From Perna viridis (lineage: Eukaryota), in contig CM074517.1 of NCBI GenBank assembly GCA_037379345.1, positions 44,748,577-44,812,576 of the forward strand: a stretch of DNA of 64,000 nt, written 5' to 3'. Position numbers and translations under genes: made by a program. The notes under the pieces are model-generated. The model was not told the origin of the DNA and ran no database searches. It saw nothing but the letters and a program-made list of their open reading frames with translations. Below are positions 1,640 to 45,031 of this stretch, piece by piece (the first letter of the stretch is position 1; each line of letters opens with the position of its first letter).

Positions 1640-4600
1640 TTAATCTGTAGAAAGACATATATCTTGAAATAGCTTATTTTCACTCCTGGAAACTATCTTA
1701 ATAACATAGATAACTTGAATGAAAGATATTTTCATTTACTTAGAAATATTAAATATTATAGTCAACTAGGAGATATTTTTATCCAAGGGGACTTAAATGC
1801 ATACACCAGTAATATTCATGATTTTGTTCTAACTGATGATACACAATTCCCAAAAATGAATGATCCAAAATATGTTTGTGATTCTCAGCTTTATAGAAAA
1901 AATCTCGATAAAAAAACAAATAAAAGTGGTAAACTCTTTTTTGAATTATGTAGAGAAGGAGGTATAAGAACACTAAATAGAAGAAAACCAGGTGATTTAC
2001 TTGGTAATTACACCTGTATAACATATAAGGAATGTAGTGTTGTTGATTATTCAATAGCATCTCATGACCTCTTCAATAATATTGGAACTTTTAATGTTCA
2101 TGATTTTACAACTACTTCAGATCATTGCGCAACAAGTTGCTCACTGTTCACTTGCTTTAATAACTTAAAAATTTGACAAAAAGCTAACCTTGAACCCCTT
2201 CCGGGCAAGTTCATGAAGAATGAAGAAACACTGGTTAAATACTCAAATAATATTCAAAGCCCTCATGTAAAACAAAAGTTAAATGATTTCATGACAACTT
2301 TACACACTGACTGTGAAACAGCTGTTGAAAACATAAATACAATTTTATATGATAGAGCCTTAAACTCTACTAATCTTATTAAAAGCTTCCCACAAAATAA
2401 AAAAATAAAAGAAATTCCCCAAACCATGGTTCACAGAATCTGGCCATGATCTTCGTGTAACTGTACACAAATATTGTTCCTTTGTAAAAAATCTCAAAAA
2501 TGGTGAGTACAGAAAAATCTTTTACTCTCTCCGTTATAAATATAGAAGGCGGTGTAAAGAAGAGAAAATATACAAAGCACGAATCCATGATAAGATATCA
2601 AACAACTTCAATAAGGATCCTAAATCTTTTTGGAACCTTATAAATAAATTAAACAGGTTATCGGAAAGCAATAAAGATGAAAAGTTTTATGAAGAAGAAT
2701 TTATTATTTTTTTAAGGACATGAATTCTGGTCATTCAAAAATAACAATTTTCATAAAATGATAATTTCAAACCTTCAGAATAATCTTGCAGAAAATAATC
2801 TCAATAATGAACACACTCTCAACAGAATAGACTCAAATGAAATATTAAAAGCAATAAAGACACTAAAAAAATGGCAAATCAGCAGGAGCTGATTTAATTT
2901 CAAATGAAATGATCAAGTGTGGTACACAAGTCTAACTGAAACCTAATATTCAAAACAGGATCATTCGTTAAAATATGGAACGAGAGTTATATTTCTTTAA
3001 TATTTAAAAAAGGAGATAAAGTAGACCCATCAAACTAGAAAGGGATATCAATTACCTCTAATCTGGGTAAACTTTTTAATAGAATTATTCAGGAAAGATT
3101 GTATCAATTTTTTGAATCCAATAAACTGATCGATAAAAATCAAATTGGATTCAAACCAAAATCAAGAACAACTGATCACATTTTTACCTTAAAATCAATA
3201 ATAGATAACTACAAAAGAAAGAAAAAAGAAAGTCTTTGTCGACTTTATAGACGTTAAAAAGGCGTTTGATATGGTTTGGCGAGAGGGCCTCTTCTATATA
3301 TTACCAAAACATAAAGTCCCGAATAAAATATTTAATATCATTTATTCTGTGTATCAAAACACAAAATGTCGAATTAAATTCCCAAACGGTTTAAGTCAAT
3401 ATTTTCCCTCCAGTTGTTGAGTTAAACAAGGTGATGTCCTCAGTCCAGCCCTTATTAATTTGTTTATAAATGGTATTTTTGATCAGCTTAAAAATGGGAA
3501 CACTGAAGCAATATTAATTGGTGATTTAAAAATTACATCACTGATGTATGCAGATGATATTATTCTGCTGTCAGAAACAGAAAAAGGCCTGCAAAATGCA
3601 GTTAACATTCTTAATGATTTTTGAAATTATGGAAACTCGAAGCAAACACAAAAAAATCAAAAATAATAATATTCAATTCAGATGGTAAAAGTTTTCTCAA
3701 CCACTTCAGTATTGATAAAAATATGTTAGATACAGTAAAATCTTACTGCTACCTGGGCATTACATTTAACTACAACAGTAATTTGAATCTATCAAAAAAA
3801 AAAAAAAAAAAAAAAAAAAATAGCCTAATGGAGAAGGGAAGAAAGGCTTGGTTTAAAATTAAAAAAGTCCTATCTATAGATGTTCCTTGTAATTTACTTG
3901 AAAAGTTATTTGACACTTTGGTAATACCTGTTATTCTTTATGGAAGTGAGGTCTGGGGAGCTGGAAAAACTTTCAGTGACTCTGACCCATATGAACACTT
4001 ACATTTGAAATTCATAAAAGAAATCCTTGGAGTAAATAGTAAAACTACAAACATTGCATGCTTAGCAGAACTGAACAGAACATCTCTACATCTAAAAGTT
4101 CAATTGAATACGATTAATTTTTTAAAACCATATCCTTAACTCCCCTGATACACTAGTCTACGAAATGTTCAGAGAAATTAAACACAACAACTTGTGGATG
4201 TCCCATGTAAAAATATACTAAATAAATTAGGATTCTGTCATCTTAACTTACAACTTTATAACCTTCAATTTTACATCAAAAGAATCGACCAAAGACTACA
4301 CGATCAGTTTAAGCAAAATTTAGTAGGCTCACTAGCTATTAGTGACAAACTGTCTTTTTCCGTAAAATATTTATTTCGTCTGAAAGACCCCATATATTGA
4401 TTTATGTAAATCTAGAATAGAAAGATCTATCATTAGTAAAATTCCTTTAAGTGCACATGCACTAGAAACAGAAAGGGGTCGGTACAAAAACATTGAGAGA
4501 AAAAGTCGTATTTGTAAATCATGTGATAGTGGGAACATAGAGGATGAATATCATTTCTTCTCGGCGTGCACCCACTACACACCGCAAAGAAATCAATACA

Positions 4601-4947
4601 GAATGAAATTAGACAACCATAATTTAATTTCTTCATCAAAACCTCACCTCACACAAAGAGACATAGCATATATATTAAACAGTAGCCCTATAGAAATACT
4701 AAAAATAAGTATCAAATTCATGAATGAATGTTGGAATCGAAGGTCAATTTAATTTAACAGAAGTTATATTAATATATATAACTTTAAAACTAAAGATTAA
4801 TCTGTTTTGATCAGATTTACACCACTGTTGCACCATGGTAATAAATTTAGTTTATATGTAATGTATATCACATTGTTCTGTTTTTGTTCATGCCATAACC
4901 ATGTACTGTAAATGAGTTTGTGCAAATAAAATTGTCTATTGTCTATA
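1640..4947 (+). mobile_element. Degraded LINE (CR1/L2-group) ORF2: APE endonuclease, RT and C-terminal Cys/His motif
   Basis: APE motifs QGDLNA, SVVDY and SDHC in ORF 1715-2176; RT motifs VKQGDVLSP (~3421) and MYADD (~3544); PVILYGSEVWG in ORF 3621-4139; CKSCDSGNIEDEYHF near 4510; AATAAA plus TTGTCTA repeat tail. Many stops and frameshifts. Confidence 0.85.
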
Positions 4948-7345
4948 AAGACGGCTACTTCAGTGTGCACCACATGATAGAGGTTATTTCCTCATAGTCT
5001 AGAAAACATAACAGTCATAACTTTAATAATCCAATTTGATGTAATAGAAAATAACCATTTATTGAAGTACCCTTCGTTATTCATATAAAACATGTAGTAC
5101 ACCACGATTGTCTCCCTTTTACCACATTAAAAACAACATTAATAAATACATAAAAAAATAAAATAAAAATAAAATAAAAAATATAACTGCGTAGGTTTCG
5201 TCAGTATGTTTTGTCAATAAACATCCAGGTGCTCTAACTGCATTGTAAACTGTTAAGAATTAAAGAAAAAAATGGCCGTCTTGATATAAATTGGAATTTA
5301 AGTACTTGATATTGTAGAGCGGGAATAAAAAAAATTATGGATCATAACCCTAAACTGTCATAAAATTCCTTAAAATTTGTTTTTAGACTACACTTCTTTT
5401 GTGTAATGATTCAGAAGCGTTTTAAATTACCTATTCTGGCGATCTTTGTACAGAGAACATGTTCTAGCGAGTTAATATTTTAACATTATCGTTTTTTAGT
5501 TTTAATAAAGATCTTAAGGAAATTGCATACAAAAGAGACCCCATCATGTTGGAGATGTACGACAGTTCCTTTATGAATAAATATTCTGCAAAGGCCAACT
5601 ATGATAATTGCTATGGATTTGGTTTCTATCTTCAACACATAGGTCAATCAAAATACATAGAAAGAACGTAACATTTAATGAAAGATGCTATAAAAGTCTT
5701 TATGAGGCTAAAATTGCACATATCGGCAAAAAAAAAATCATTATTAAAATCTTATGACTTATCTTGTCTTCCGCTCGCCTATAAAAGTCTACAAGCACAA
5801 ATTTTACGACAACTTTTCATTAGATACATTTATATATATTATTCTGCTGAATGGTGTATATGTTGTTCTGCTGAACACGTGTTTCAAAAAGTAACCTTCC
5901 ATTTGCAATATTAGAAGAAAATACTTAGAAAGATCGAAATCCAAAAATAAATTGCATACAAGTACAAAAACTATAAAGACAAAAACAGGAAGAAGCAGAA
6001 AATCAAAATGTTGACTTCTGCTGTTATAGTTAGAAAAGAACTTGATCAGCGTGACATACATAGAGATTTAGAAAAGGGGGCCTACATCGGTTTCCCAATA
6101 TCGGTTAGACCCAGCCTGATTTTAGGTAATAGTTTGATGACTGTGTTTATTTTGATAATTATAATATATATAATATACTGTATTCTGTATCTGTATGCAG
6201 ATTTGTATTTTTGAAAAAAAAAAAAAAACTTACGTTCATCACCCACTTAATCAACCAAACCAGAACGATAACTCTTGCAAAATGCGATTTTCAAGTACAA
6301 ACTATCTCAAAAGTGCAACTATCAATTGAATAAATACTAAGACTAGTCGTGTGGTCGATTTCTGAAAACGAAAGTAGCTTTTGCAGTACATGAATTACCT
6401 CAACCTTAATTTTATTTATAAAGTCTGCAACTTGATTCGTTTAGGTTTTTTTTTTCAGTTGTTCTATTCAGTTTTTTTTATATATACTCTATTACGTAGT
6501 CTTTTTATTATCCTCTACATTTCTCAGACAAACCTTTCTTTAAATGATATTGCATGAACAAATACATTTTAGAGCATACATATTGAAATCCTACTATTAG
6601 ATTCATCTACTCTTAATAGAACCGTGATTGTTCTACATTGATCAAAAACAACTTAAAGAGAAAAAGAGACATAGACAACAGACCAGAGGCTCCCAGGAGT
6701 CTGAATCGATCACTTGTTTCATTCGTTGCCTTTCAAGGTCAAGAACACTGACAAGTTGTCGTCCTACAACTTCCACTCATGGAGATTTTTGTAGGTCTTA
6801 TTGTAGATATCATTTCATCAATCGAATTATTTTTCTATCTATTATAGTTTCAAGATATTAGCAAAAATTAAACAAGTACCATCTTTAAAAAAATATACCC
6901 AACGCAGTAAAATTTTACTTTTAAGTTTCTACATTTCTTTCAAGAAAATAACACATGGCACGCAATTCAAATTTTCGATACAGTTTTTGAACGCTATTTC
7001 AAGTTTTCGATACCGTTTTTTTTAACCCCACTAAGTTACAGGTATTTGGCCAATCGGTAAACAGAATTGCGATCAGGTGACTTGCGTTCTCATAGAAGAG
7101 CGTCGAAAAAAAATCTCTTTTCGCATTTCAAGGGCAATGACTCTATCTAGAAGTAATCCTACAACTTCGATCAACTGGGGATGGATTTTTGTAGGATTTT
7201 CAAGACAAAGGAGGAAAGTGCACTTCATTTTTCTCTATCAGTCAGAGTTTTTGAGATATACCTTGAAATAAGTGGCTTTACCCCTAATAGTTAATAACAA
7301 AGACAAATAATTCTCAATTCTGTAGGTAAATTTATATTTTATTTA

Positions 7346-7504
7346 NNNNNNNNNNNNNNNNNNNNNNNNNNNNNNNNNNNNNNNNNNNNNNNNNNNNNNN
7401 NNNNNNNNNNNNNNNNNNNNNNNNNNNNNNNNNNNNNNNNNNNNNNNNNNNNNNNNNNNNNNNNNNNNNNNNNNNNNNNNNNNNNNNNNNNNNNNNNNNN
7501 NNNN
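7346..7504. other. Assembly gap (N run)
   Basis: Run of N characters. Confidence 1.
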
Positions 7505-7649
7505 CGATGGCAAAGCTGAAATTTAACAGGCCCGCCGTCTCTCCTTTGGAAAAATTCTTCCTTCGAATGAACTAGATTTGATATGATGGACTCACTAGAG
7601 TTTTCTTTCTTGTCCTACGATATCGCTTTAGATCAGTTTTATTTGGGTG

Positions 7650-7897
7650 TGTATTCGATAGGAGTAGGAACCTTTGCGCTCCGCCACAGGGGGCTAAATT
7701 GCCCAACCTTACCCATCCCTCCCTTTTTCTAGTGGCAATCAAAAATTTTCGACCCTATTATCCTTGTGTCCCATCCCCTTTTTTCATCTCATCATTATTT
7801 CATGTCCATTTTATCATCCATTTCATGTTCATTGTCTGAAAATAGCTGAAATATTGCTGCTCGGACGTTAAACCCCAACAATCAATCAATCAACCAA
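7650..7897 (+). mobile_element. SINE-like retroposon, 3' part (same family as 23486-24010 and 43377-43580)
   Basis: Shares GGAGTAGGAACC...GCTGAAATATTGCTGCTCGGACGTTAAACCCCAAC with the other copies and ends in (CAAT)n. Confidence 0.75.
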
Positions 7898-7937
7898 TGA
7901 CCAATTAAGGGGCGGTAATTGACACTTACGGTATATT

Positions 7938-8067
7938 AGTAGTGTCAAAAGGCCGATTCTACCGCACATGCAGAAATCCTGCATAAAACCCCCAACCCCG
8001 ACGGCCAAATGCAAACGGACGGTATCCCTATTGAGCATAAGGTAAATACAAGAATTATGGCTTTCGT
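7938..8067 (+). repeat. Left terminal inverted repeat of the Polinton
   Basis: AGTAGTGTCAAAAGGCCGATTCT...ATTATGGCTTTCGT is the reverse complement of 19252-19381 with a few mismatches; internal hairpin ATGCAG/CTGCAT. Confidence 0.95.
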
Positions 8068-8394
8068 TTCGATCGGAGAAGACTTCATCAGTGAAGATTT
8101 CTTCCAGGAAAAGGTTGAAGAGCAGAGTCAGGAAGCTCTGAAATGGAAGGACTTACCCATCGAGGTAATCTACAAGATCACGAGGTGATAGAGGTGGATG
8201 GAAAGTTCGGTAAGTCTAAGATCCTCACCTTGAAGGATAGACAAGGAGAGAGCACCAAAGTATGGGGTTGCCCTACGCTCAACAAAGAAAAAGATCCCTT
8301 TCAAGGAGCATACGTCCGGAGCACGGGATTCAAAGTGAGCAAAAAGTCCAAATAGGAATACCTCTCCTACGATCTGGCGAGGAAAAAAAAATAA
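8057..8394 (+). pseudogene. Polinton small left-end protein (possible OB-fold-like), frameshifted and with a premature stop
   Basis: MAFVSIGEDF...LKWKDLPIEVIYKIT, then a 1-nt deletion (frame intact in the copy at 61977-62145), then EVIEVDGKFGKSKILTLKDRQGESTKVWG. The fold assignment is inference only. Confidence 0.65.
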
Positions 8395-9069
8395 AAATAA
8401 CCGAGGCCTAGGGGTTCGAAATTTCCCAATCCAAATTACTGGAATTGAAAATTTTTTTTTGGTCACTTGAGACTTTGATCTGGAGGATTCTGGAATAAGC
8501 GCAGGGAGCGAGGCGTAACCGAGCGAGGAGAGCGTTGGAAGAATCCTCCCTATGGCCATGCGTAGTAAGGTCTTCACTAAAAGTGGTGGTGGTGGAAGGT
8601 TTCGCAGCTGCTGCTTTTCGTCGTAGTAGAAGCCAAGACATTTCACAACCCCTGCAAATTCAGATTCATCGATATCATCATCCTCCAGCGCTTTGCTCAC
8701 TGCATCTTCGATCTTGGATTGGTAGGATCTGGCGATACGCACGGTATCTTCATGCTTTTTACGCTTTTTGCGGATGCGCTTGACTATCACCGTCAACACC
8801 ATCATCGCGATGAAATTCACGACGGCTAGTGAGCTCAACGGAATGCATGCCACGGCGCATATCCCTGTGGCGGCGGTGCTGAGTGTGCCGGTGGTGCAAA
8901 TGACGTTGAGTACGGCACACGCACCCAGAGAAAAAGATACCGCTTTATCCACTCGCTTATAGGTCCTCGACAGTCGGGCATACTTATGTTTTTCGAATTC
9001 AAGCTCTCTCTCAATCGACTCGATCCTAGCTTTTCGGTAGGATTGCCTCTCAGAGCCTACGTTGTCCAT
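8170..9069 (-). CDS. Polinton membrane protein (two hydrophobic helices between coiled-coil/basic segments)
   Basis: AVSFSLGACAVLNVICTTGTLSTAATGICAVACIPLSSLAVVNFIAMMVLTVIV followed by KRIRKKRKKH; preceded by TAGATAAATG. The C-terminal ~130 aa overlap the opposite-strand gene and are probably not real. Confidence 0.65.
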   Translation of the reverse strand: MDNVGSERQSYRKARIESIERELEFEKHKYARLSRTYKRVDKAVSFSLGACAVLNVICTTGTLSTAATGICAVACIPLSSLAVVNFIAMMVLTVIVKRIRKKRKKHEDTVRIARSYQSKIEDAVSKALEDDDIDESEFAGVVKCLGFYYDEKQQLRNLPPPPLLVKTLLRMAIGRILPTLSSLGYASLPALIPESSRSKSQVTKKKFSIPVIWIGKFRTPRPRLFLFFFPRQIVGEVFLFGLFAHFESRAPDVCSLKGIFFFVERRATPYFGALSLSILQGEDLRLTELSIHLYHLVIL

Positions 9070-9079
9070 TTATCTATAT

Positions 9080-9431
9080 CTAGAGGAGCATGCCCAGCAG
9101 GGGAATACTTTTGAAGGGGCTATTAGGACCAAGGATCAATTCGCTACCGTCGTACACCTGACTCCCGCTTTTCACGTACAACCAATCCACCTTTTTTCTG
9201 CACGTTATGCCTCACCTGCTTCGGACTCATCTCCAAGACCATAGCACCCTTCCCACTCTGCAAAAGCTTGGTGATGCGCTGGATCTGGCACTGAGTGAGG
9301 AGCATCTTATGCTCACCGGATAGGTTTGCGTGCAGCAATCGAACGCTCACGGGGCAACCCTTCATTGCTGCACGCTGGATCTTCTCTGCCTGACCCATCG
9401 TCAAGTTGAGACCGTACTCTTGATAATCCAT
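9080..9431 (-). pseudogene. Polinton virion core protein, frameshifted and probably internally deleted
   Basis: N-part MDYQEYGLNLTMGQ...LLTQCQIQRI...KKGG; another frame gives the C-terminus LYVKSGSQVYDGSELILGPNSPFKSIPLLGMLL* (stop at 9080), a tail typical of adintovirus core proteins. Confidence 0.6.
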
Positions 9432-9435
9432 TTAT

Positions 9436-10187
9436 TTATACCTCACGCAGATGGAAGCAGATGGTGAGATGCTCTCCTCGCAGATCGATGGGGCGACCGT
9501 CTTGATCGGTCAGATACGTCTGCATGCGGTCGATGGTTCTCAGGGTCACGGGTAAGTAGACTAGTTTCTTGGGGGTCTGGATGATCTTCATACCAGGATC
9601 GACCACGGGAAAGAAGCTATATATATGGTGGACTGCTGGGTGTCGTTGACGTAGCTTTCGTGGATGATATCACCATTCACCAGGATGCTATTGATGCTGA
9701 TGATATTGACAATATTCTCACCCTCTGCATAACCATTAGTGCTACGGTCGAATCCAAGCACCGTATTTAGGCTATTAGGCTCGTCGAAATCCACTTGATA
9801 ATTTCTGGCGAGGATGAGGGTTGCTATCAGAATCGCGCGGTTGGCATCGAGAAGGACCTTAGCCTTGTGCTTATGGAGCCGCAGTTGCCGCTGGATCTCA
9901 TCGTTGATATCGTCGATGCCGTAGGAGCCGGTGCCCAGCTCGACGGGAAACCAGTTAGCCGAATCATCGGGAGAGTAGCGGAAGGAATTATTACCTGCAT
10001 GAATATTGGGGATGGAATAGTTGGTCTCCAGATTCACGAGGACCATCTCGTAGGATTTCTCCTCGCGCAGTTGGAGGGGTGGGTTGAAGCGAGTCAACAT
10101 CTGGCTATCGTTCCCAGAGACGATGAAGGAGAACCCATGCTTGGGTTCGGTATTGGTGGCGATTTCCCGCAAAAGTGAAGCGTCCAT
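9436..10187 (-). pseudogene. Minor capsid protein (penton, single jelly roll), frameshifted
   Basis: FNPPLQL...LVNLETNYSIPNI...GSYGIDDIND; after a frameshift near 9620 it continues FFPVVDPGMKIIQTPKKLVYLPV...LTDQDGRPIDLRGEHLTICFHLREV*. Confidence 0.85.
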
Positions 10188-10201
10188 TTATCTTACCCTC
10201 C

Positions 10202-11486
10202 TCAGAAGACGACGCTCATCTTCTGGCCATCGGATTCGAATTGGAGAATTCGATCGGAGATGACCAGGGCGAAGGCTTGGGTATTGGCAGGGACGTTGCG
10301 CTCGAAGTCGGCTCGGATCTGGATATCCACCGTCGACTCTTTCAACCGCTCGGACTGATTGCTCACGTCGATGACGAATAGGGGATAGAGATCGATGAAG
10401 TCGGAGGGATTGATGCCGCCATTGCTCAGCAGACTTTCTATGCTATAGAATTTCTTGTGGAATTCGGCAGCTTCCTTGTAGAGCCTGGCGACCCTGCATT
10501 GGGTGAAGCCGACATTGAAGTCCACGGCGGGATAGCACTCCGCATTGAGGGTCACATGGATATTTCGCAATCGGCAGTGGTCGAAGACAGGGCATTATGC
10601 AGCTGATCATTATCCCTATCGGTCTGGAAGGGACGATGATCCATCGCGGTTTTTATCGCCCGCTTTTAGCGGCTAGACGCCAGTGAAATAGCAAAGTATT
10701 GGGCACGGCGATTGAGTCGCACTGCCTCATGCGAAATCCGCAATTGATCTTGGTTTGGCTCTGGATAGTCCTATAGAGCCGCAGCTTCTTTTCGTCGGAG
10801 GGGATGACGTGGGGGACGAACCAGGAAACCTTGCTCAGTACTACTTTGGCCACGTCGTTGACGGCGGCGCCTCGGAGTATGGCATTTGCATCCGAATCTC
10901 GCACCAGGGAGATCTCGTGCTTGAATCCGTAGACAATCTTATCGTAGTCCTCGGCAAAGCCAAAGACGTGCTTGAGCGGGATGGAGAAGGAAAATGATCC
11001 CTTATTGGTTGGCTTGGTGATGATATACCCGTGACGTATTACGAATCCAAAGTTTTCTGCCTCGGCATTGGTCGTGGAGTCTTTGAACCATAGTTGGTTG
11101 AGGCCTTGTGATTTGGAGAAATCGGCGGGGTACGTCAGCATTCCTGGCATGGTTGTGGCAATGCCGGGGTCGTTTAGGTGCTCGATCTGCTGCCCGGAGA
11201 GTCGGTAGCTGATGCTACGAAAGAGATACGTGGCACCATTATGGAAGAGCGATACCAGATCGCCGTCGCCATACGCAGTGCCATCGTTCTTCTGATCTCG
11301 GGCTTCAATCAAGAGATAGCTTTCGGCGGGGTGGAGGAAGAGATCCTGGGTCTCGATATTGATGCGTATCTCTGCGCCGGCATTATTTAGCTACGTCCCG
11401 GCTTGAGGTTCGTATTCGTGAACCTGATACTCCTGGACACTTTCATCGAAAGTCAGTCCTTCGGTGATAGTGAGCATATCGGCCAT
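10202..11486 (-). pseudogene. Major capsid protein (double jelly roll), with in-frame stop and frameshifts
   Basis: MADMLTITEGLTFDESVQEYQVHEYEP...EIRINIETQDLFLHPAESYL; IPLKHVFGFAEDYDK; LYPLFVIDVSNQSERLKESTVDIQI. Combines ORFs 10653-11312 and 10202-10570. Confidence 0.88.
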
Positions 11487-11493
11487 CAAATAT

Positions 11494-11815
11494 TTATCTA
11501 TAGCCCTGGACGAAGTGGTGGATGGTGGCGATGCCCCCGCCCGAGATAAGATTATTGAGACGGGCCTGCTGCTGCGAGGTCCTCTTGGACTTGGTGGGTG
11601 GTGTTGGGGGAGGATTTTTCTTGCAAGTCACTCGATGGACGACGTGGTCCACCTTTCAGGGCTGCATTGGAAGCGGCGCTCACGGCCTTACTACCCAACG
11701 TCTTGGCGGCAGAGGAGGTAAGCACGCGTCCGGCTAGATTGGTGATGGTATCGAATAGTCCTCGTCCGCCGACGGCATATCTCCGGCGATAACCGTGATT
11801 CACTACTAAAGGCAT
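11494..11815 (-). pseudogene. Basic virion core protein (adenovirus pVII/pX-like), frameshifted
   Basis: GYRRRYAVGGRGLFDTITNLAGRVL: a Gly-Gly/G-L-F candidate protease site followed by an amphipathic helix; C-terminus RLNNLISGGGIATIHHFVQGYR* in another frame. Confidence 0.55.
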
Positions 11816-11825
11816 CGTAAATTTA

Positions 11826-12465
11826 TTTAGAGGACCTTCCGATGTAGCTTCTCGTATTCCTCCCTGCTGATATGGTCAGACTATCTCATGGCGTCGAGGA
11901 TGGCCACGATTTCGTTGCGCACCCCATTATTTCCAGCCTGGTAGGCGGCAGCGCAAAGATCGAGACGATCCAGCAGCTGGTCGAAGCATGTGGGGAGGAA
12001 GACGGTCGGCACCCCGCTGCCATATTTATCTTGCTTATAAAAGTAGGATACGATCTCCTTCCATTTGCGGCTTCGATTGTACTTTGGAGTGCGCGAGAGG
12101 ATAGAATTTCCTTGATACATCGCATATGATGCTCCCATTGTGCCTCTTGCATTTATCACTGCCCGATATGGATGGGTACGTGCACAGATGGCCACGGACG
12201 GTCTTGATGCAGCACGGTGGTCCCTGCGGCTGCTTAGGTTTGCGACGGGAGTGGGAATTATAGGTCCTTTCTTCGAAATCCTGCTCATTGAAGCGGTTGG
12301 CGTACCTTTCGGCGGCGCATCCACTGCAGTTATATCCTCGGATTTCGCCATGAATAAGCACACGCTCCCACCGCATTCAGGGGGTGGTCGTGAGGGCTTG
12401 AAAGCATTCTCCAGATCCAAGTCCCGCAGTAATCCATTCTTTATCATAGACTCGATAGAACTCAT
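11826..12465 (-). pseudogene. Conserved Polinton protein of unknown function
   Basis: C-terminal FLPTCFDQLLDRLDLCAAAYQAGNNGVRNEIVAILD resembles the LP..PxxLxxRL...AGN...NEI motif common in Polinton ORFs located between ATPase and capsid; frameshifted. Confidence 0.6.
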
Positions 12466-13211
12466 CTAGATTGTATCGATATTTCGCTGCCGTCTTGGGG
12501 CTCGTGAGATCGATGGTCAGAATCCATGAGACTTGGACCAGCAGTGGTCGCATAGGGAATCGAATTGAGCCGGGGTGAGATCGCCGCAATGGTCCCAGCG
12601 GATATGATCGCTATTCTTGGCATCCTGCTCGAAGAGGCAGATGAAGTTGGCATTCTCCCGGATCGATTGCCGCGGGAGCTTGAAGTAATTTTGGCAGAGA
12701 TAAAAGCAGTCCACGTTATTATGGCGGCCGCGCACGTAGTAGTCTTCATACTTGCTCTGCTTGCTCAGCATCAAATCGTCGTAGACCATGAGATTCTTGC
12801 GGGTGGAATCGAGCTCTAAAGGATCGGGCACGTCGCTCGCCTGCTCAAAGAAGAAAGGTTCGATACCGCTAGGCTTGGACGGTGGCTTCATCACCTCCAC
12901 CACGTCTACCAAACAGAGTGGGGATAGCGATCCTTGATGGTGAGAAGATCGCGGATATCGTCTTTCGAAAACCCCTTCCCAAACGCCCGCCGCAGTAGCT
13001 AGTAGATGGGCTGGTGGAGTGATTTTCCGAAGACGTAGAATCGATCGTAGTCGAGCCATCCATCGGGCAGGAGGAGGTTATTCAGCAGCGTTGTCTTGCC
13101 GCAGTCCGATTTCCCGATGATCAGACCTCGGATAGATCGCTGCGGGAGGAGAAAGTGGTTATGCAGACGACTCGCGGTGGGCTCATCGTAGGTAAGGTCT
13201 TCAACGTCCAT
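12377..13211 (-). pseudogene. A32/FtsK-like genome packaging ATPase, disrupted
   Basis: Walker A LIIGKSDCGKTT; Walker B LMVYDD; RGRHNN, QNYFKLPRQSIRENAN. Split over ORFs 12999-13211, 12517-13059 and 12377-12589. Confidence 0.9.
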
Positions 13212-13224
13212 TTATCTATATAAA

Positions 13225-13737
13225 ATGGCAATGTACTGCTTGAAATGCAAGAGGAAGACGGAGACGAATAGTCACGCCGTGATCACGAGCAATGTCGGAT
13301 GGCGGCAGCGGAAGGTGGGGACCTGCGCCGAGTGCGGTACGCGGAAGTCGCAATTCATCAAGACGAAGGAGGGCGCCGGACTCGTGAATAAGCTGATCAA
13401 TCGGATGCCCGTCGAAATGCATCTGCCTGGGCATAATTTCACCGGTCCGGGGACAAGACTCAGCATGCAACTCGATGCCGACGGCACCCCCAAACCTTGG
13501 TCGAGGCCCATCAATCGAATCGATGAGGCCGCCTATCGCCACGATATTTGTTATGCCAAGCACAAGGATACGGCCGCACACAATTCGATCTGCGATAAGA
13601 CGATGCTAGCCTCCCTCGATGCCATCCCCAATCCCACCGCACACGAGCGCTTCGAGCGTGGCATCGTCAAACCCATCATCGGCACTAAAGCGCGATTTGG
13701 GCTGGTCGTGGGAGGAAAAAAAGTACGGACGAGCTAG
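13225..13737 (+). CDS. Zinc ribbon plus parvovirus VP1-type phospholipase A2 domain protein
   Basis: YCLKC...CAECG zinc ribbon; HNFTGPGT Ca-loop-like motif; DEAAYRHDICY catalytic HD motif and downstream D. Confidence 0.85.
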   Translation: MAMYCLKCKRKTETNSHAVITSNVGWRQRKVGTCAECGTRKSQFIKTKEGAGLVNKLINRMPVEMHLPGHNFTGPGTRLSMQLDADGTPKPWSRPINRIDEAAYRHDICYAKHKDTAAHNSICDKTMLASLDAIPNPTAHERFERGIVKPIIGTKARFGLVVGGKKVRTS

Positions 13738-14578
13738 CCGAAGAGCTGCATAAGCCAGTCCAACGTAACTTTCAGAAGATCGCGTGGTGGTAGGTGGGGT
13801 GGACGAGACCTGGGTTGCCGATCTCGTAGATATGAGCGCCTTCTCCCGCGATAACCGAGGCTTCAAGTATCTCTTGAGCATCATCGACGTCTTCTCCAAG
13901 TACGACTGGCTGGTGCCGCTCAAGAATAAGAGAGGCGCCACGGTGCGAGATGCCTTACGGACCGTCTTCAAGGATCGCACGCCCGAGAAGCTATGGACCG
14001 ATAAGGGGACGGAATTTTATAATCGCGAGATGAAGGATCTGCTCAAGAAGCACGGCATAGATCTCTACTACACAGAGAACGAAGAGAAATCAAGCGTGGT
14101 GGAGCGTTGGAATCGTACCATGAAGGAGAAGATGTTCAAATATTTCTGGGCCAATTCCACGCGCACCTACCTTCCCGTCTTGGACCATCTCGTCCACCAG
14201 TATAATACCACCAAGCATCGATCCATCAAGATGACTCCCACCGCCGCCAGCGAGAAAGAGCACGAGACCAAGGTCTTCTGGAATCTTTACGGAGACCTCC
14301 CACCCATGCAGCCGCGGCGATTCGACGTGAGCGATAAGGTCCGAATCACCAAGAAAAAGAGCACCTTCGAGAATGGATATACTGCGCGATGGACGGAGGT
14401 CTTTACCATCGCCCAGGCCCTAGCGACGCAGCCACCCACCTACCGCCTCAAAGACTACGAGGGTGAGGAGATCAAAGGATCCTTCTACGAGCCCGAGCTT
14501 CAGCGCACCGATGAGGATATCTATCGCATCGAGAAAGAGAAAGAAAATCTTGAAAGTCAGAAAGTCAGAAAGTCTTGA
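13728..14578 (+). pseudogene. Retroviral-like (rve) DDE integrase, frameshifted near its N-terminus, chromodomain apparently lost
   Basis: DELAEELHKPVQRNF then WVADLVDM (D), LWTDKGTEF (D), VVERWNRT (E), GSFYEPELQ; ends shortly after IYRIEK. Confidence 0.92.
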
Positions 14579-14660
14579 TTTACGCATGCTTCAGCTCGAC
14601 GAAGACCCTTAATGCGTCCAGATCCGCCTGCAGGCGATCGTGAAGGGCTTTGGTGATAGG

Positions 14661-15050
14661 TTAGTTGTCGGTCCGAGGAAGTGGGAGATTTAGCAGGTGA
14701 TATTTTTGCATGTCTAGATCCACATTCACCTTGCCGCCATTGGTCGAGACGCAATCTGACTTATCGACTTTGCCATCTTCTACGGCGATCAGCTTTTTGG
14801 TAAGATCTTTGATCGATGCGTCATACTCCCTCTGCTTCCGCTTGATGGTCACCTGGATCTGCTTACATTCCAAATCTAGCTCGTCGATGTCTTTCATGCC
14901 GTCTTTCAATTGTTGGGTGACCCCTCGCTTCGTCACGGCGTCCGAGCTGTCTCGGGGCAAACCGAGGCTGGTGATCTGATGATCTTTCATATCCTGAAGC
15001 ATCCGCCAGACGGGCATGCGCTTTCTCGAGTGAGATCCAAACTTATCCAT
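14661..15050 (-). CDS. Fibre-like / trimeric stalk-repeat protein
   Basis: Two motifs, DMKDHQITSLGLPRDSSDAVTK and DMQKYHLLNLPLPRTDN, resemble tail-fibre/adhesin neck repeats and are separated by a coiled coil; preceded by TAGATAAATG. Confidence 0.5.
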   Translation of the reverse strand: MDKFGSHSRKRMPVWRMLQDMKDHQITSLGLPRDSSDAVTKRGVTQQLKDGMKDIDELDLECKQIQVTIKRKQREYDASIKDLTKKLIAVEDGKVDKSDCVSTNGGKVNVDLDMQKYHLLNLPLPRTDN

Positions 15051-15054
15051 TTAT

Positions 15055-15468
15055 CTATAGTCCGAAGATCACCTCTTCCAGCGTCCGACCTTCCGATAAG
15101 AGCTTCAGTACGTGCAGGCAAAAGTGCCCGCAGACCACGTCGCCGCGCCGCTGGAGCTCATCGGTATTATATCGAATTTCCGGCTGCAGATAGTCGACCA
15201 TCTTGTCGGGTGGAGGCAGGCCGTAGGAGTCGAAGTAGACTTTGAGTCCTCCACGCTTATACCAGCACGTCCAGTGCGTGCCGAAGCCATCGCGATCGTC
15301 GTGATTCAGGACGCCGCACTCGTTGGGTTGGGGGTTGGATGGTAGGGCACCGCGCATGAATACTCCTCTGAATCGAGGGATGCCTAGGGCCGTGGCGGCT
15401 TCCTCGAGCTCTATGTTGGAGAGGGGCTTGTGGGGGAGGAGGATACCTTGCACGCGTATGCTGCTCAT
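15055..15468 (-). CDS. Adenain-like cysteine maturation protease
   Basis: Catalytic motifs GTHW (H), YFDSYG (D), ELQ (Q) and CGHFC (C) in an intact 137-aa ORF. Confidence 0.93.
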   Translation of the reverse strand: MSSIRVQGILLPHKPLSNIELEEAATALGIPRFRGVFMRGALPSNPQPNECGVLNHDDRDGFGTHWTCWYKRGGLKVYFDSYGLPPPDKMVDYLQPEIRYNTDELQRRGDVVCGHFCLHVLKLLSEGRTLEEVIFGL

Positions 15469-15488
15469 TTATCTAGGTATGAGCATTC

Positions 15489-15576
15489 GCCAAGTGTGGG
15501 ATGGGCATCCACACCCGTCAGAACCTGCTAAATGCGGGATGGGCATCCGCACCCGTCAGAGAATGCTAAGTGCGGA
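15489..15576. repeat. 38-bp tandem repeat (~2.3 copies), each full unit forming a hairpin
   Basis: GGGATGGGCATCC(A/G)CACCCGTCAGA at 15498 and 15536; GCTAA(A/G)TGCGG at 15527 and 15565. Confidence 0.85.
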
Positions 15577-15592
15577 GGGGTGGTGGATGACC

Positions 15593-18500
15593 TCAGGCGT
15601 GGGCGATTCGATAGTGTCCGAGGGCGAGGGTGATAATGCCGTCCGGGAGGATGTGGCGCTTGTCATCTTTGGCGGAGAGAGCGATCTTGATCTCCTCCGT
15701 GTAGATCTGATGGAGATGGCTCCGGATGATATTCATCGGACGATGAATCTCCTGCTGGGTGTCAAGGCATCGCTTGTAGTCCTCGAAGGCGATGCTGCGC
15801 TTGGTGACTCCCTTTGCCTTCTTGATGGTCTCGTCATCCCCTACCTTGAAGGCATATAGCTTCGCCTGTAGCCCCACGAACTCGGTCATGGTCTTACCGC
15901 CGCACTCGTCCTTGAACATCCCGATGATCTTATTAACGTCAATGGGGATGTTGGGCGTATCGAATTTTTCCGGGATGTGTGGCGCGATGTCTTTGTAGAA
16001 GTCGGCGGTCTGGATTTCGTAGGCCAAGCTGTCTGTGTCGGTAAAGAGCAGCCGAACCTTATCGCCGTACGTCTTTCTCACGAATCCGTAGTGGAAGTCG
16101 TACATCAGGAGCTTCGAGATATCCAAGATGCAGGCTCCCAAGTAGATCGGCTTATCGAACTTCAGCTCGGTCTTCTTCATATGCACGGCTACAAGATTCT
16201 CGGTGAAGACGACCCTCCGCTCAAAGTTGGGTTTGGCCACGAGCTTCAGGGCCTGCTTCGCGGTGGTAACTAGTTTGACGTCGACGCGCTTCGGGATATT
16301 TTCCATCGTTTTGCCGAAGACCGAATTATTCATGAGCTTGAAAAACGCGTTCTCGGAGTCGGTCTTAACCGCGCCTCGAAGCTTCGTATTCAGCTCGATA
16401 TACGACTTGAGCCAGGGGGATTGCCTGAACCCTATGATGCGATGGACTTTGACGAGCTTCAAGCCCATCGATAAGTAGAGCTTGAGATTTCGATAGTGAA
16501 GGGCATATTTTTTCGCGCTTGCCTAGATGAGGCACGAGCTTGCGCACCTTGTCGATTTCCACGTTTTCCGGCGCGAGAGTGTGGTCGTTGTGGGCGTCGT
16601 GAAGATCTTGCAGATATTCCAGATTGCATTCCACTCTGGTTCCGTATTCGTGATCGTCTGGATACTCCAAGACCTTCTCGATCTCCTCCGGCTCCATCCA
16701 CTCGAAGTCTCCCGTGGGAAGGGGCTGTACCATCGCCCAACCGTAGAGGTTATTGGCGTCGAGGTAGGTGAGATATTTGGTTGGTTGGGAGTGATCGTAG
16801 TCGGCCATGTAGGGACCCCCTTCCTAATCATTAGCTCGTACTTATCGCTAAAGCATTCCCGAACCGCATTGAATTTATCGGGCGTGAGATTCTTCGCCAG
16901 ATTTTCGAGGTAGCTGAGCATGAATCTGCACGAATCGATGAATCTCATCTCCAGACCATCTTTTATCTGCTTCGAGAAGCTTATATGTTTCTCGTTCGTA
17001 TTCGGGATGCAGGTGATCTTTCCCCCGTTGAATTCCTTCACGAAAAGATGGGCATCGTACCCACTCAGGTTGTGGGGTATGATGGGCACGTGCTTCGGAA
17101 GCTGAAAATCTAGGTTGCACTGGTTGTGTGCCGCGCCCCGATACTTACCGGTGAGGTGGTCGTGGTCCCGGACCTGATCCCCATTCAATGCGAATGTGGA
17201 TGTGGCAGTGCGTGCTTTCTTCAAATCCCTCCTTATCCTCGTCGCTCATCTCCATCGGCTTCTTCTCCTTGCATATCTTGCTGATCGCCTGTACTTCCTC
17301 TTCGATGCATTGCACAAATATCTTGGCCGCCTCCTCCCCGCAGTAGACGACCGATTCCTTGTAGTCGCCGCAGGCATACTTCAGGCGATAGCAGAAACCT
17401 AACGGCCGGTGCTACTGATACTGCTTCGTGTAGGACTTGGTCGGGTCGGGCCGGCAGGTATCGATCTTCTCCGTGAAGCACTCAAAGTCCGCGTAGATCG
17501 CGAATGGGACTGTCATCTGCCTCTTGTGATTATGGAAGGCTATGGTGGATCCTTCTTCCGGCATCTCGATCCTGATCGCATCCTTCTGGCTGCAATATTC
17601 CATATGGTCCTCGAGAAGGTCCTGTCTGGCGATGTGGTAAAGGCATCTGCGGCAGAAGAAGAGCCCATGACCATGCTCTGAGATTTGGGAACTCAAAAGG
17701 CGTGATAAGCTCCTGATCCAGCAGTAATGCTGCTTGCCTTCGCGGGTCAGGAAGAGGAGATCTACGTGGGTGGGGCTCGTATTCTTTGATATCCTGAGGG
17801 GGTAAACCTGGAGATTCTCTTCTTCATCTTCACCCTTCTTTACGCCATCGAAGCCAAAAACGTTGACGTTGATGTTGGGGTTCTGCCTCTCGAATTTATC
17901 GATCGCCTTGAAGGAGACCATGAAGTCGACGCCTTCGAATTTTAGCTCACCCTTCCATCTCTTGTATTGAGCTACGCGGTTTGCTGACTTCTGGCCAATC
18001 TCATCGTAGTGTAGGGCTGCCAGCACCGCCCACTGGAAGCAACGATCATCCTCATTTTTCACATTGACGATCGCCATTTTTTTCGCGAGTGCCGATGGGG
18101 TTGCTATGAAGGAACCCCCCTTGATTGGCTTGAATTAGTTGAGATGGATTTCTAGCTTATCGATGCTGCTGAATGTCCACCCGCTCCCTTCCCACATGCA
18201 TCTTGCCATATTTTCCTTGACCTTCTCCATCATGAACGATCTCCAATTCGAGGTCGTCAGATTCCGCGACCATTGTCGTGCGTGATCGGAAGTAGGGGGT
18301 GAAGTAGCCAGTAGGTATTCTCCCCAGTCGCGGGGTTGGTTTTCACCATCTCTGCAAAGATCACTAAGTGAACTTTCAATCCCTTCTTTTGAGTGAGCGC
18401 GTTCGAGATGGCGGTGGTGATGGTGCTCCGACTACTTTGAGAAATGTGGTCACGTCGTGCGGCTTCGCGGGTTCGTTGACGACCGTACCAAATACACCAT

Positions 18501-19262
18501 TCAGATCTTCCCGCCTATGGGTGACCTTGTTCTCATCTTCGACTGGGGCGCTTTTGATGTCCTCTTCCACCAAATGGAGTAGATCGTCTCTCTTGAGCTG
18601 GGAATATTTGGTGAGGCCACAATTCTTTGCTAGCGCTTTGAGCTGCTTCTTGCTGAAGACTTCCTGGCGGGCAAATTTACGGGTGGTTTTCTTCTCGATG
18701 AGCTTCACCAAGGCCTCCTTGTTCTTCCTACTGACCCCCCTCAGACCCTCATCCTTAGCTATTTGACTGAGAGTCGTCATGGTCTCTTTTACCACCATCT
18801 TACCCTCGACTGGGATGACCTCCTCCTCCTCCTGCTGGCGTGGTTGCCTGCTATGCCTTCAGTAGAGACCATCCTTCCCGGGCTTGCTTTTGCAGAACTT
18901 CCCCTTCTTTCTCTTGAGTGGGACGCCGCAAGTGGTCTTCTGTTCCCCTGGTTGATGCTCAAATCGCGTCTTGGTTGATTGTGCACCGCAATTTTGACAC
19001 ATCTGGGTATGCTCATCCGTCTGCGTCACGTTGGGGATATCGCAGCACTCCCGCTGCCTTTGGGGGTTTGGAGTTGGAGTGGTATCCTCCAAATCTTCTT
19101 CATTCTCCAGAAAGAATTCCTGGTAGCGATTTATATTATCACTATTGGATGCCACCCCTTTATTCATTCAATCTGTGGCACATCTCTCTTTAAGGTGTCC
19201 TTATCCACATCCCCACTATCCTCAGCTGGGTCGACCTGACGTATGCTCTGTACGAAAGCCAT
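15593..19262 (-). pseudogene. polB: Protein-primed family B DNA polymerase with long N-terminal extension, multiply frameshifted
   Basis: Pol motifs YLDANNLYGWAM, KLMNNSVFGK and TDTDS; Exo motifs YADFE and HNLSGYD; endonuclease-VII-like DHDHLTGKYRGAAHNQCN; OTU-like VNVKNEDDRCFQWAV...HYCWI; C2H2 finger. Upstream ORFs 18376-18798 and 18859-19167 are in frame with each other; that they belong to the same gene is inference. Confidence 0.93.
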
Positions 19263-19381
19263 AATTTTTGTATTTACCCTATGCTCAATAAGGATGCCTT
19301 CCGTTTGCATTTGGCCGTCGGGGTTGGGGGTTTTATGCAGGATTTCTGCATGTGCGATAGAATCGGCCTTTTGACACTACT
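19252..19381 (-). repeat. Right terminal inverted repeat of the Polinton
   Basis: Reverse complement of 7938-8067; ends ...TTTTGACACTACT. Confidence 0.95.
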
Positions 19382-20287: not shown

Positions 20288-21807
20288 CTTGTTAAGATAT
20301 ATATGTCCACTGGGGGTATATATAAGCTGGTGTAGTGCGCTAATGGAATGAACAATATAAAGACCTGAGCCAAACTTTTGCATGTCGCATAATTTGGTTA
20401 AATGTTTCAATTTTTTGAAAATAAAATTGCGGCAACTGAATTACAAAGAGCAGGGGACAAGGGATAAAAATAATGAAAAATTAAGTGAAACTTACTAAAA
20501 ATTTTCACATTGAAATTTGCGTCCATCAAATATACGACGATCTATTTTCATTTACCACCTCGATTCCAAATCTACCAGTGTCCCAATTCAGACCTATCGA
20601 CTCCATGTTGTTCCAGTACACACGCTTGTTTAGACACACAAAGAAGGCGGTGTTTGTTGATCTCACGTGACCATCTGTGTATGACGGAATCTCATTTGCA
20701 TACGACCAAATCTCGCTTGCGTCACGCAAAGTTAGAAATCGAAAGTAAATGGCTGCTGACTCTGGGTTAAGGCTTTCAAACTTCTTTTTAACGAGATTTG
20801 ATGACAAATAGCCGATAAAACACATCAGCATAAAGAAAAATGCATTCCGAATCGAAATAGGTATGCACCACCTACACGATTTCAACATGAAAGTCGTAAG
20901 AAGCGCGTGAAGGGCGATACTCCGCGGTACCGCTGAATCTCCAACTTTTTGTATGGCACATCGTTCTGACCCCAACCCGACATATCAATATCCAAATAAA
21001 AAAGGGGAGGGTTGCAGGGTCAGAGGAAATTCGGACTAAATCTACTGCTAACTGTTGTACAATAGAGGTGGACGGTTGTCCAAATGGCGCGACTAAATCG
21101 TTTTCAGCATTGAGGGATCGGTAAGTCAATGATCTTGTTCTTGTTGTGGCCTTTCTTTTACCAGTGTAGTGAACAGATATGGTTTTCACCTTACGTTTAC
21201 GGATTAATACCATTTTGAATTTTAAATTCCATGATGACATCAACATAATTAAAACAAAACGAAATAAAAAGTTCTACAAATATGGCGCTTGTGATGACAA
21301 TATTCCGAATGACGAAAAAGATCATGCTTTGCATAACTTAAAGTTGATTGGCCAGTTCATAAAAGACATAAAATGCCATGTACAAAAAAAACTCCTGTCT
21401 GTAGTTACTGTTAATAACGGTAATATTAATCTTGTGTTAGCCGCTATTAGCGTTAATGTAAATACTGTACAGTTTGAAAGTCTGTCTTTGTTAGCATTAG
21501 TAGCAGGCCAACAACACTAATAGATATCCACTAATAGTGGCTAATATGTCAGGAACGGGTGCTATGGCAGTGCCAAATATGGCATTTATTGAATATTAAA
21601 TTTCTAGATGCCACAATGTTGATATTTCTTTCGGAATCATTTCTAATCAATAAAACTAAATTACAGTAATAAATTTTTATTTCTGTTTTGTTTAAAGTTA
21701 TATTAACTTTTACAATAAGATGAATCAACATATAACGAAGACGGCTTGTATTGTGTGTTTTATGAAATAAAATTGAGAACGCCTTGATTTGGGTGATTGG
21801 GAACACC

Positions 21808-24178: not shown

Positions 24179-24184
24179 TGGGAA

Positions 24185-24685
24185 ACAGCTTAGATTGAGA
24201 ACGGCTTGTATTTAGATTTTATGAGATAAGGTTGAACACGCGCATGTATTAATTGTTTATTGAAATACAATTGAGGACGGCTCGTATTGTGTGTTTTATG
24301 AGATAAAATTGAGGACGGCTCGTTTTGTGTGTTTTATGAAATAAATTTGAGAACGGCTTGAATTGGGTTACTGGGAACCGCTTAGATTGAGAACGGCTTG
24401 TATTTAGTGTTTAATGAGATAAGATTGAAAACGCGCATGCATTAATTGTTTATTGAAATAAAACTGAGGACGGCTTGTTTTGGTGTTATATTAGGTAAGA
24501 TTGAGACCGTGCATGCATTGATTGTATATAAAATAAAAATTAGGACGGCTCGTAATGTGTGTTTTATGAGATACGATTGAGAAAGGATTATTATGGATGT
24601 TTTATTAGATAAAATTGAGAACGGCATGTATTGCTTGTTTTATGAAATGAAATTGAGAACGGTTCGTATTTGATGTTTCATGAGC
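24185..24685. repeat. ~40-bp degenerate minisatellite
   Basis: Recurring GATAAAATTGAG(A/G)ACGGCT(C/T)GTATTGTGTGTTTTATGA; the same unit also occurs at 21735-21805, on the other side of the foldback element. Confidence 0.8.
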
Positions 24686-25909
24686 TGCCTTGTCTATCTT
24701 GTTTTATTTTCACTTTCAGTTTACTTTTATATTGCTGGAGTATATAGGGGTAGCTATTTCACTATACTTGTGTATAATGTTATTTTGGGACAACTGTAAT
24801 CTGCCCAATGGTGTCAGTGTTCCCTCTCCGTTCATTTAAGACCCATGGGTGGTCATGGGCTGAAATGTTTCGTCCCTGTGAGGTTGTTGTCTCTTTGACA
24901 TAATCACCATATCCTTTCTCGTTATAAGAGATATCAAAGAGCTTTTTTAATCTATTGTGCTTCTCTGGTTATTAGGATTATTTGGTTGCTTTGTTCTAGA
25001 ATAATTAATTTTGTCTAACTCTTATTTCAAAGACATATTTGTTCTAGTTTAGCACGCCTGTATGTGTTGGTATTCATAACGTTTTCAAGTAACCACAAAT
25101 GTCGGGATGGGTGGCATACATATGTACGTGATTTTGATTCAGAAGCGATATATCTACATCATCAAATTTCTTGTAAAAATATAATAATTTGTTGATTCAG
25201 CCAATCAAAAGTCGAACATTATATCATATTATGACAGGTTATCTCTTTAAATGTATTCCGATGTTACAACTAAATTAATCTTATACCGGTAGTTACTATA
25301 TACTGTATATTTGAATAAAAATAAAATTTCCTTGAAAAAAACATGCGGTAACAGTTCGAACAATTACTTCCTAATTGCTAAAGTCACTTCCGAAATACAT
25401 CATTTCCAACGGACAGATTGTGTGTCATTCATGTTTCAGAGCATCTACATATACAGGACGAATAGACACCTCAATCGAAGACTTTTTTCTGATTAAACAA
25501 TTTGCACATTGTGAAAAAAATACGACTCCGTGGCCCAATTGAGTTTTTGAAAAATTCAAGAAAAACAACCAGTAATGGAAGTAATTATGTAGCAAAATGT
25601 ATGTTAGTATTTCAGTTAGGTAAACAAACCAGGACGATCTTCAATATAATTGTTAGGTTTTAATTACCTCATTAAAATCAAAATTGTAAAACAGATGAAG
25701 TTTTGTCAATCTTATTGTACCATGTAAATAACGTAACGCACTAACTATAAGGTCGTACATGTACAGTTCTTATATTATTTAAAAATGTTTTAATGTGTGC
25801 AATTAATCAATTGAATATATTACAAATCTATATTTGGTTTCATAACAACGCATGAGGAACTTAGATCTTAAGAATCGTAGATAAAATAGTGTTGGGTTTT
25901 GTAACTTTT

Positions 25910-44840: not shown

Positions 44841-45031
44841 TACAATCAAATACATTAATACCTATCAACATATCAGAAGAGCAGAATTTGCATCAATTAG
44901 AGAATTATCATTTATTGACATAAAAAAGTTTCTCACAATCAAAACCTTTAATTAATGATAAAATGATTTCAGAGAATTATCATTTAAATGATTCAGTACT
45001 TATTGTTATTTTCTATGTACTTTTGTTGCAG

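Follow-up and report, generated by a model that had tools for sequence, protein, structure and literature searches.

A stretch of 64,000 nucleotides of the Perna viridis genome (assembly GCA_037379345.1, contig CM074517.1, positions 44,748,577 to 44,812,576; hereafter the window) carries a decayed Maverick/Polinton insertion, at 7938..19381, whose virion-module genes share a non-random gene-start signal. The core of the signal, RATAAAT, lies within 15 nt of the ATG at eight of nine listed starts, compared with 3 of 390 other ATGs (1e-13), and its fuller form is TATARATAAAT(G). We consider it a real, probably functional and family-specific gene-start signal of an animal Maverick; its interpretation as a promoter served by the RNA polymerase of a helper virus is plausible, and is weighed below against transcription by the host and against signals acting on RNA.

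A shared word at gene starts

The exact word TAGATAAATG occurs four times in the window, always on the minus strand and always spanning a start codon (9069, 13211, 15050 and 15468), as an earlier sequence-only reading of this DNA had claimed. That reading had also listed variants at 9431, 10187, 11486 (TAGATAAAT-N5-ATG, at the major capsid protein, MCP) and 11815, together with a PLA2 start, TATATAAAATG, 13 nt from the ATPase ATG, and all of these were confirmed; the ATPase and PLA2X ATGs stand head to head with the word on each strand. The fuller word proved longer than had been claimed, since RATAAAT is present at 8/8 minus-strand sites, with TATA in front at five and ATGGA behind at five. 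The sites are as follows.

9076-9067, 13218-13209, 15057-15048 and 15475-15466, minus strand: exact copies of TAGATAAATG
9067..9078, minus strand: TATAGATAAATG at the 9069 start; spacer of 10 nt, the upstream stop being no part of the 10-nt core word
9429..9440, minus strand: TATAAATAAATG at the 9431 start (variant TAAATAAATG); the first TAA is the stop of the putative penton gene
10185..10194, minus strand: AAGATAAATG at the putative penton start (10187); fully intergenic, 14-nt spacer
11492..11502, minus strand: TATAGATAAAT, 5 nt 5' of the MCP ATG (11486); the 11815 gene ends in the codons (Y, R, stop) that spell it
11821..11829, minus strand: TAAATAAAT, 5 nt 5' of the 11815 ATG; the first TAA is the upstream stop
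13209..13227, both strands: divergent pair of TATAGATAAATG (ATPase, minus) and TATATAAAATG (PLA2X, plus); no upstream stop involved
15048..15059, minus strand: TATAGATAAATG at the 15050 start; the TAG is the stop of the putative protease gene
15466..15475, minus strand: TAGATAAATG at the putative protease start (15468); 124 nt past the PolB stop

The nine starts are those of the sequence-only reading, and the patterns were picked after the sites had been seen; the background of 390 ATGs includes the gene near 12465, the integrase, PolB and an open reading frame (ORF) at 8057. Orthology backs the starts of the ATPase, 11815, penton, MCP, PLA2X and 9431 genes, and more weakly that at 9069, while 15050 and 15468 are ORF calls only. 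RATAA stands directly 5' of the ATG at 6/9 listed starts versus 1/390 others (Fisher 1e-10). Copy number alone says little, as some 10-mer attains four copies in 22 of 200 Markov-3 simulations; under a composition-matched null, a 4-mer common to at least six of the nine junctions arose in 3 of 200,000 draws, and in a further such null in 0 of 200,000. TAAATG takes in the ATG at six starts, TAAATA lies 5 nt upstream at one, TAAATT is found at one and PLA2X has none; across the element TAAAT occurs 24 times, 10 of them at the listed starts and 14 elsewhere. The base at -3 is T in seven of the nine starts versus 0/9 in L001, a related element described below (p 0.002), and the base at +4 is G in seven. 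Upstream of the word (-40 to -11), A+T content ranges from 0.40 to 0.63, with a longest A/T run of 2-5 nt at all nine starts, compared with an element-wide A+T of 0.48.

Spacers measure 4-14 nt at six of the seven same-strand junctions. The sequence-only reading had named a lack of conservation beyond stop/start coupling in related elements as an outcome that would refute its proposal; the coupling itself was checked in the window. At four of eight sites the word takes in the upstream stop, in two registers, whereas at the 9069, penton, ATPase and protease starts it does not; with half of the sites uncoupled and the remaining stops in two registers, such coupling does not explain the signal.

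Conservation in relatives

The close clade was sampled as proteins only, through 13 homologues of the 11815 gene product, of which a 62-aa fragment was omitted to leave 12 (63-92% identity to best match). Eleven of these 12 end exactly in Y-R (5) or Y-K (6), an alternation that mirrors the G/A variation of the window motif. The motif therefore seems to be conserved in the close clade, indirectly, by an amino-acid proxy at a single junction; it is a proxy because the codons of the homologues, and the type of their stops, are unseen. The N-terminal extensions of the PLA2X homologues were not informative. An IKIN extension in 2 of 120 MCP homologues fits the word of either family and was left uncounted.

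A scan of a genome contig collection retained two loci, L001 and L002, out of 121 candidate stretches; both are Maverick contigs within bacterial assemblies, with MCP identities of 57-58%. Neither contains a copy of TAGATAAATG; RATAAAT is near 0/9 virion starts of L001 and was not found in L002, and in both loci the counterpart of the 11815 gene extends beyond the Y-R/K end point with other residues. Conservation in related elements is supported by proxy, at that one junction, in the close clade (11/12), and these two relatives lack the word; conservation across the whole family is not supported. The listed L001 starts are:

3823-9660: virion starts
2066, 8712, 9201 and 10979: non-structural starts

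In L001 a different word, WTAAAW, lies at -30 to -24 (~-27) of 8/9 virion starts, versus 6/448 background ATGs and 0/4 non-structural starts, and is followed by ATCT or ATCG in five of the nine. A second word, WTAAAGAAA, lies 5' of 4/4 non-structural starts versus 0/9 virion starts and 3/448 background ATGs. Both L001 patterns are post hoc. Two gene classes are marked by different words at virion and non-structural starts, which looks like a two-class promoter system; three starts in L002 resemble the L001 pattern by eye. A shared "early" word, TTAAAGARA (three L001 starts, and once in the window at 19193), was dropped as evidence across families because 19193 may be inside the PolB frame, where homologues read TLE or ALR besides TLK.

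Proposed reading of the signal

We propose that TATARATAAAT(G) would act as a compact initiator-type promoter, present in one copy per virion-module gene. Each virion gene would be transcribed separately, from a start within or at the motif that leaves the mRNA nearly leaderless (~0-15 nt), and the genes would be switched on jointly when particles are made; we infer that their expression is late. The reader would be the multi-subunit RNA polymerase of a co-infecting large DNA virus with pox-like or asfar-like initiator logic, as with virophages. That the word is an initiator-type promoter at which transcription begins we consider rather probable; it lies at the place where initiation would be required were every gene to have a separate mRNA. 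To the whole chain, helper-virus polymerase included, we would assign a probability of roughly 0.4, a figure that, like the other gradings of promoter and reader given here, is a judgement and not a computed value. As reader, the helper-virus polymerase is slightly favoured, with host RNA polymerase II (Pol II) next, and a poxvirus in particular is quite unlikely.

Within the element, initiation at the motif is supported by the T at -3 and by the 13-nt divergent spacer. By the Kozak rule, T at -3 is a poor start context; it would be poor if the mRNA began upstream and harmless if initiation occurred in the A-run, which favours initiation at the motif. The marking of two gene classes in L001, one of them by an AT signal at a fixed position, also speaks for a promoter role.

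Comparison with known systems

Vaccinia late promoters have a T-containing core of ~20 bp located 5-7 bp 5' of TAAAT (PMC5294985), and the vaccinia late and intermediate initiator is TAAAT(G/A) (PMC5294985, PMC6211774); TAAAT is also found at ranavirus polymerase promoters (PMC5294985). The window is like the vaccinia late system in that TAAAT overlaps the ATG at 6/9 starts, T stands at -3 and structural genes are concerned. It differs in lacking the ~20-bp T-containing core and in having the longer fixed word TATARATAAAT, and the window element is GC-rich and integrated, with no RNA polymerase family found in 21 ORF pieces. The word might behave as nucleocytovirus initiators do, yet it does not qualify as a late promoter of the poxvirus type, a label that is too specific. 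A poxvirus identity, to which the sequence-only reading had pointed, is not supported, given the missing core, the 14 of 24 TAAAT copies that lie elsewhere and an asfarvirus initiator that fits equally.

In African swine fever virus (ASFV) the late initiator is TA(+1)TA, followed by an AT-rich leader with a median of 9 nt, and an upstream motif is found at only 17 of 55 late genes (PMC7163114), so that its absence from the window is no obstacle. Five of the eight window sites begin with TATA, 9 or 16 nt 5' of the ATG, as does that of PLA2X, a word too short to discriminate; the other three sites lack TATA, and ASFV lacks a conserved ATAAAT. On this comparison the asfarvirus late initiator would fit the window sites as well as the poxvirus one. 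An asfarvirus-like virus has been reported from abalone (PMC7067878).

Promoters shared with a helper are described for mavirus and CroV, Sputnik and mimivirus, and Gezel-14T and PgV (bioRxiv 2022.07.28.501842, PMC5294985). Like these virophages and PLVs (polinton-like viruses), the window insertion is a small element with a double jelly-roll (DJR) capsid, an AT island per gene, one recurring motif and no RNA polymerase family found. Unlike them it has an animal host and no known helper; its motif is not AAAATTGA, and TCTA occurs on the opposite strand only (on the sense strand only for PLA2X). The yeast cytoplasmic elements pGKL1/2 are linear elements with a protein-primed polymerase, features that the window element shares along with a TAAA initiator. 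The pGKL1/2 initiator reads TAAAN and is served by their own RNA polymerase (PMC6211774); neither such a polymerase nor the upstream conserved sequence of pGKL1/2 was found in the window element. The alpha adintoviruses/Maverick-Polintons (PMC8502044) and the PLVs associated with entomopoxviruses (PMC11296320) resemble it in PolB, rve, ATPase, PLA2X, DJR capsid and terminal inverted repeats, and elements of the Maverick lineage occur in entomopoxvirus occlusion bodies (PMC11296320).

Weighing the alternatives

A number of observations weigh against the proposed reading. Besides the lack of the word in L001 and L002, the L001 WTAAAW signal resembles a TATA box, no A/T-rich core lies upstream of the word at any of the nine window starts, and the basic C-terminus of the 11815 homologues could reflect a constraint on the protein. 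One gene of the cluster, that near 12465, shows no clear motif, with a damaged-looking ATPase junction (8/10 starts if it is counted). The element carries an integrase and resides in the host chromosome, and AATAAA is found 3' of the left-end ORF of the window element (8390) and, in L001, 3' of the final gene on the plus strand (11343), single cases, but as Pol II transcripts would need. Finally, 10 of 20 N-terminal PolB homologues read INK, mostly just 5' of a methionine, which could be the same ATAAAT word. The INK stretch may equally be coding, as in several homologues the frame is already open from an ATG at the terminal repeat's inner border; in the window, the PolB frame is broken at the equivalent stretch, and both terminal repeats carry TAAAT 14 nt 5' of an ATG. 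Since PolB homologues possibly carry the word, restriction to virion genes is not established: of the coordinated late regulon claimed by the sequence-only reading, the shared non-random start signal stands and the late or virion-only specificity is not supported.

The same promoter could be read in the nucleus by host Pol II with no helper involved, the enzyme perhaps being retargeted, once the DNA has replicated, by a factor of the element; we regard this as possible but on balance doubtful. The integrase and chromosomal residence, the AATAAA at two 3' ends and the TATAAAA-like word at ~-27 in L001 all speak for host transcription, as do adintovirus transcripts reported from animal transcriptomes (PMC8502044). 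The N-terminal zinc ribbons of PolB are weakly like transcription-factor ribbons (atlas 0.82-0.86, recognition below threshold), and sub-cut-off Zn_ribbon_RPB9 matches were obtained in 2/20 N-terminal PolB homologues, yet no dedicated regulator was identified. The Pol II TATA box precedes the start by ~30 nt. The TATA-like word of the window lies 8-16 nt 5' of the ATG, with none near -30, so it does not take the usual place of such a box; that of L001, at ~-27, is marginal. If Pol II used a TATA-type word at -9, transcription would begin inside coding sequence, yet the N-termini are conserved, and with a box at -9 or at -27 little or no room is left for an intact AUG; moreover, the word does not match the metazoan initiator consensus.

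Signals acting on RNA were also considered. Were the word to direct translation starts, or re-initiation, within longer or polycistronic mRNAs, its place adjoining the ATG in 6/9 starts, the 4-14 nt spacers and the G at +4 would fit. Yet it is also present at the ATPase, divergent and first of its run, and 124 nt past the PolB stop; two sites lie 5 nt from the ATG, and the T at -3 is unfavourable. This explanation is unlikely. A role in RNA processing, as the poly(A) signal of the upstream gene or as a cis- or trans-splice acceptor (YAG), seems improbable. All eight sites hold AATAAA (2) or GATAAA (6), and YAG stands immediately 5' of ATAAAT in five; however, a poly(A)-type hexamer is absent at four of five 3' ends tested, the fifth match being the protease motif itself, and no gene on the same strand ends within ~1.4 kb of the ATPase site. 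Two sites lack AG, the pyrimidine content before AG is 0.40-0.73 against a background of 0.49, and an acceptor would not account for the invariant ATAAAT. It is more improbable still that the word is a host GATA-factor site conferring tissue-specific expression: AGATAA (consensus WGATAR) is present in 6/8 sites, but the element has 25 copies of WGATAR, two sites read AAATAA, and six of the 12 homologues end in Y-K, which is incompatible with AGATAA in that register. The chance frequency of repeated 10-mers (22/200) and the four sites overlapping a stop are what a functionless by-product of AT-rich junctions and stop/start coupling would show; the composition-matched nulls (3 and 0 of 200,000), the four uncoupled sites and the homologue C-termini matching the word make it exceedingly improbable.

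No hairpin terminator was evident at window gene ends (6/6 regions, z -1.95 to +0.60), and a 38-nt repeat, whose two copies lie in the interval from the PolB stop to the protease motif (15489-15564), folds no better than shuffles (z -1.18). In L001, 11330-11470 and 2250-2392 fold strongly (z -5.12 and -2.68); the former, which has AATAAA at its first hairpin, lies just past the final plus-strand gene. A sigma-70 and terminator scan, of no relevance for a eukaryotic element, gave chance-level results.

The element and its setting

The insertion spans 11,444 bp, is alpha-adintovirus-like and is flanked by a 6-bp target-site duplication matching at 5/6 bases; its terminal inverted repeats have 135-nt arms that are 95% complementary. 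A 6-bp target duplication and terminal inverted repeats are features of Mavericks/Polintons. A DJR capsid, an A32-like packaging ATPase, PLA2X, an rve integrase and a type B polymerase were all recognised within it, in pieces (profile matches include rve, E 6e-13, and DNA_pol_B_2, E 0.0025 on one piece only), and together with the repeats and the duplication they identify it as a decayed Maverick/Polinton. PLA2X is described as a marker for alpha adintoviruses (PMC8502044). The sequence-only reading was right that the element is GC-rich (52% GC, versus ~28-40% in most host bins), and its statement that no RNA polymerase is recognisable agrees with the 21 ORF pieces scanned, in which no such family was found. 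CpG observed/expected is 1.02 in the element and 0.79 in the host flanks. The named homologues of its proteins come from scallop and mussel, in line with a marine invertebrate host; no capsid relatives were found in phage and plasmid collections, and there was no Rfam match.

7938..8067, plus strand: left terminal inverted repeat; TAAAT (8043) 14 nt 5' of an ATG (8057)
8608..9069, minus strand: gene of unassigned function, orthologue of L001 6510; 3' end provisional
9080..9431, minus strand: broken gene, orthologue of L001 5461, whose weak Adeno_PX match has E 0.017
9436..10187, minus strand: putative penton/minor capsid gene, broken; label inferred, without library match
10202..11486, minus strand: DJR MCP gene, in pieces; profile and orthology
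11494..11815, minus strand: small basic protein gene, broken; 13 homologues
11827..12465, minus strand: broken gene, orthologue of L001 7339; start provisional, no clear motif
12455..13211, minus strand: A32-like packaging ATPase, in pieces; profile and orthology
13225..13737, plus strand: PLA2X (DUF5679 plus Phospholip_A2_4)
13720..14578, plus strand: rve integrase, in pieces; no ATG at the conserved N-terminus, which overlaps the PLA2X end
14661..15050, minus strand: 129-aa ORF; nearest clusters are hypothetical eukaryotic proteins
15055..15468, minus strand: putative adenain-type protease; ORF, label from residue order
15593..19262, minus strand: protein-primed PolB unit, broken into many pieces; zinc-ribbon and Rho_N/HEH parts at the N-terminus; start provisional
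19252..19381, minus strand: right terminal inverted repeat; TAAAT (19276) and ATG (19262) face the PolB unit

The labels "fibre-like" (15050), "penton" and "protease" had no library matches, and "fibre-like" was not confirmed; those of the protease and penton rest on motifs and gene order. The ORF at 15055..15468 is a putative protease by its order of His, Asp, Gln and Cys residues; it had no match in Pfam, PDB or PHROG, and its single-sequence model (pLDDT 44) was too poor for searching. The N-terminal region of the PolB unit (18379-19262, minus strand), with zinc-ribbon and Rho_N/HEH parts, has weak atlas leads (0.82-0.86) to nucleocytovirus VLTF3-like and transcription-factor ribbons and is a candidate regulator.

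The conserved N-terminus of the integrase (window 13716-13760, plus strand; L001 3250-3350, minus strand) overlaps the PLA2X end just past an A-run, in frame -1 relative to PLA2X in the window and +1 in L001. As the integrase has no ATG at this conserved start, absence of the motif there is uninformative. Among PLA2X homologues, 112/120 have KK near the end, 22/120 a tail like that of the window and 5/120 continue into integrase-like sequence; PLA2X and integrase are possibly fused by a programmed frameshift, although L001 does not fit the -1 reading.

A broken plus-strand ORF without family match begins at the ATG in the left terminal repeat (8057) and ends near ~8400, close to the AATAAA at 8390. 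A second, truncated copy of the left end of the element lies at 61852-62169, with 95% identity across 294 nt; it adjoins 24 nt that match 8737-8760 and contains no motif site. An assembly gap (Ns) occupies 7346-7504, ~430 nt left of the element; nested inverted repeats with arrays of a 38-nt unit at 21680-24708 resemble a non-autonomous repeat element. Two long single-exon ORFs lie on the plus strand, one with a secretin-family 7TM domain (44963-46579, E 1e-14) and one without a Pfam match (41406-43049).

Implications for animal Mavericks

No description of promoters like these in animal Mavericks was found in a search that left most subscription journals outside. In the available text of the following sources, the word "promoter" is absent from the main text of PMC11296320 and PMC8502044 and from bioRxiv 2023.08.22.554363, 2026.10.13.758929 and 2024.03.23.586382; PMC8097293 uses it twice, in unrelated passages, and the promoter passages of PMC10328495 concern virophages. 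Animal Maverick particles have been described as unobserved and activation by a helper as only hypothesised (PMC8097293); for vertebrate Mavericks, helper activation has been proposed without promoter evidence.

More broadly, and this we hold to be rather doubtful, integrase-bearing Mavericks of marine invertebrates may be virophage-like dependants of large DNA viruses, each family having a word that matches the transcription machinery of its helper. If true, this would explain the difference between clades (TATARATAAATG at the ATG here versus WTAAAW at -27 in L001), and helpers would be predictable from provirus sequence alone, the window clade pointing to a virus of pox-like or asfar-like type. 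Were a host polymerase the reader, the word would still be a compact promoter type of which no description for Mavericks was found in the available sources, with different words in different families. The signal thus bears on capsid-gene expression in animal Mavericks and on whether a helper virus is needed, and a family-specific start word offers a direct test of helper dependence.

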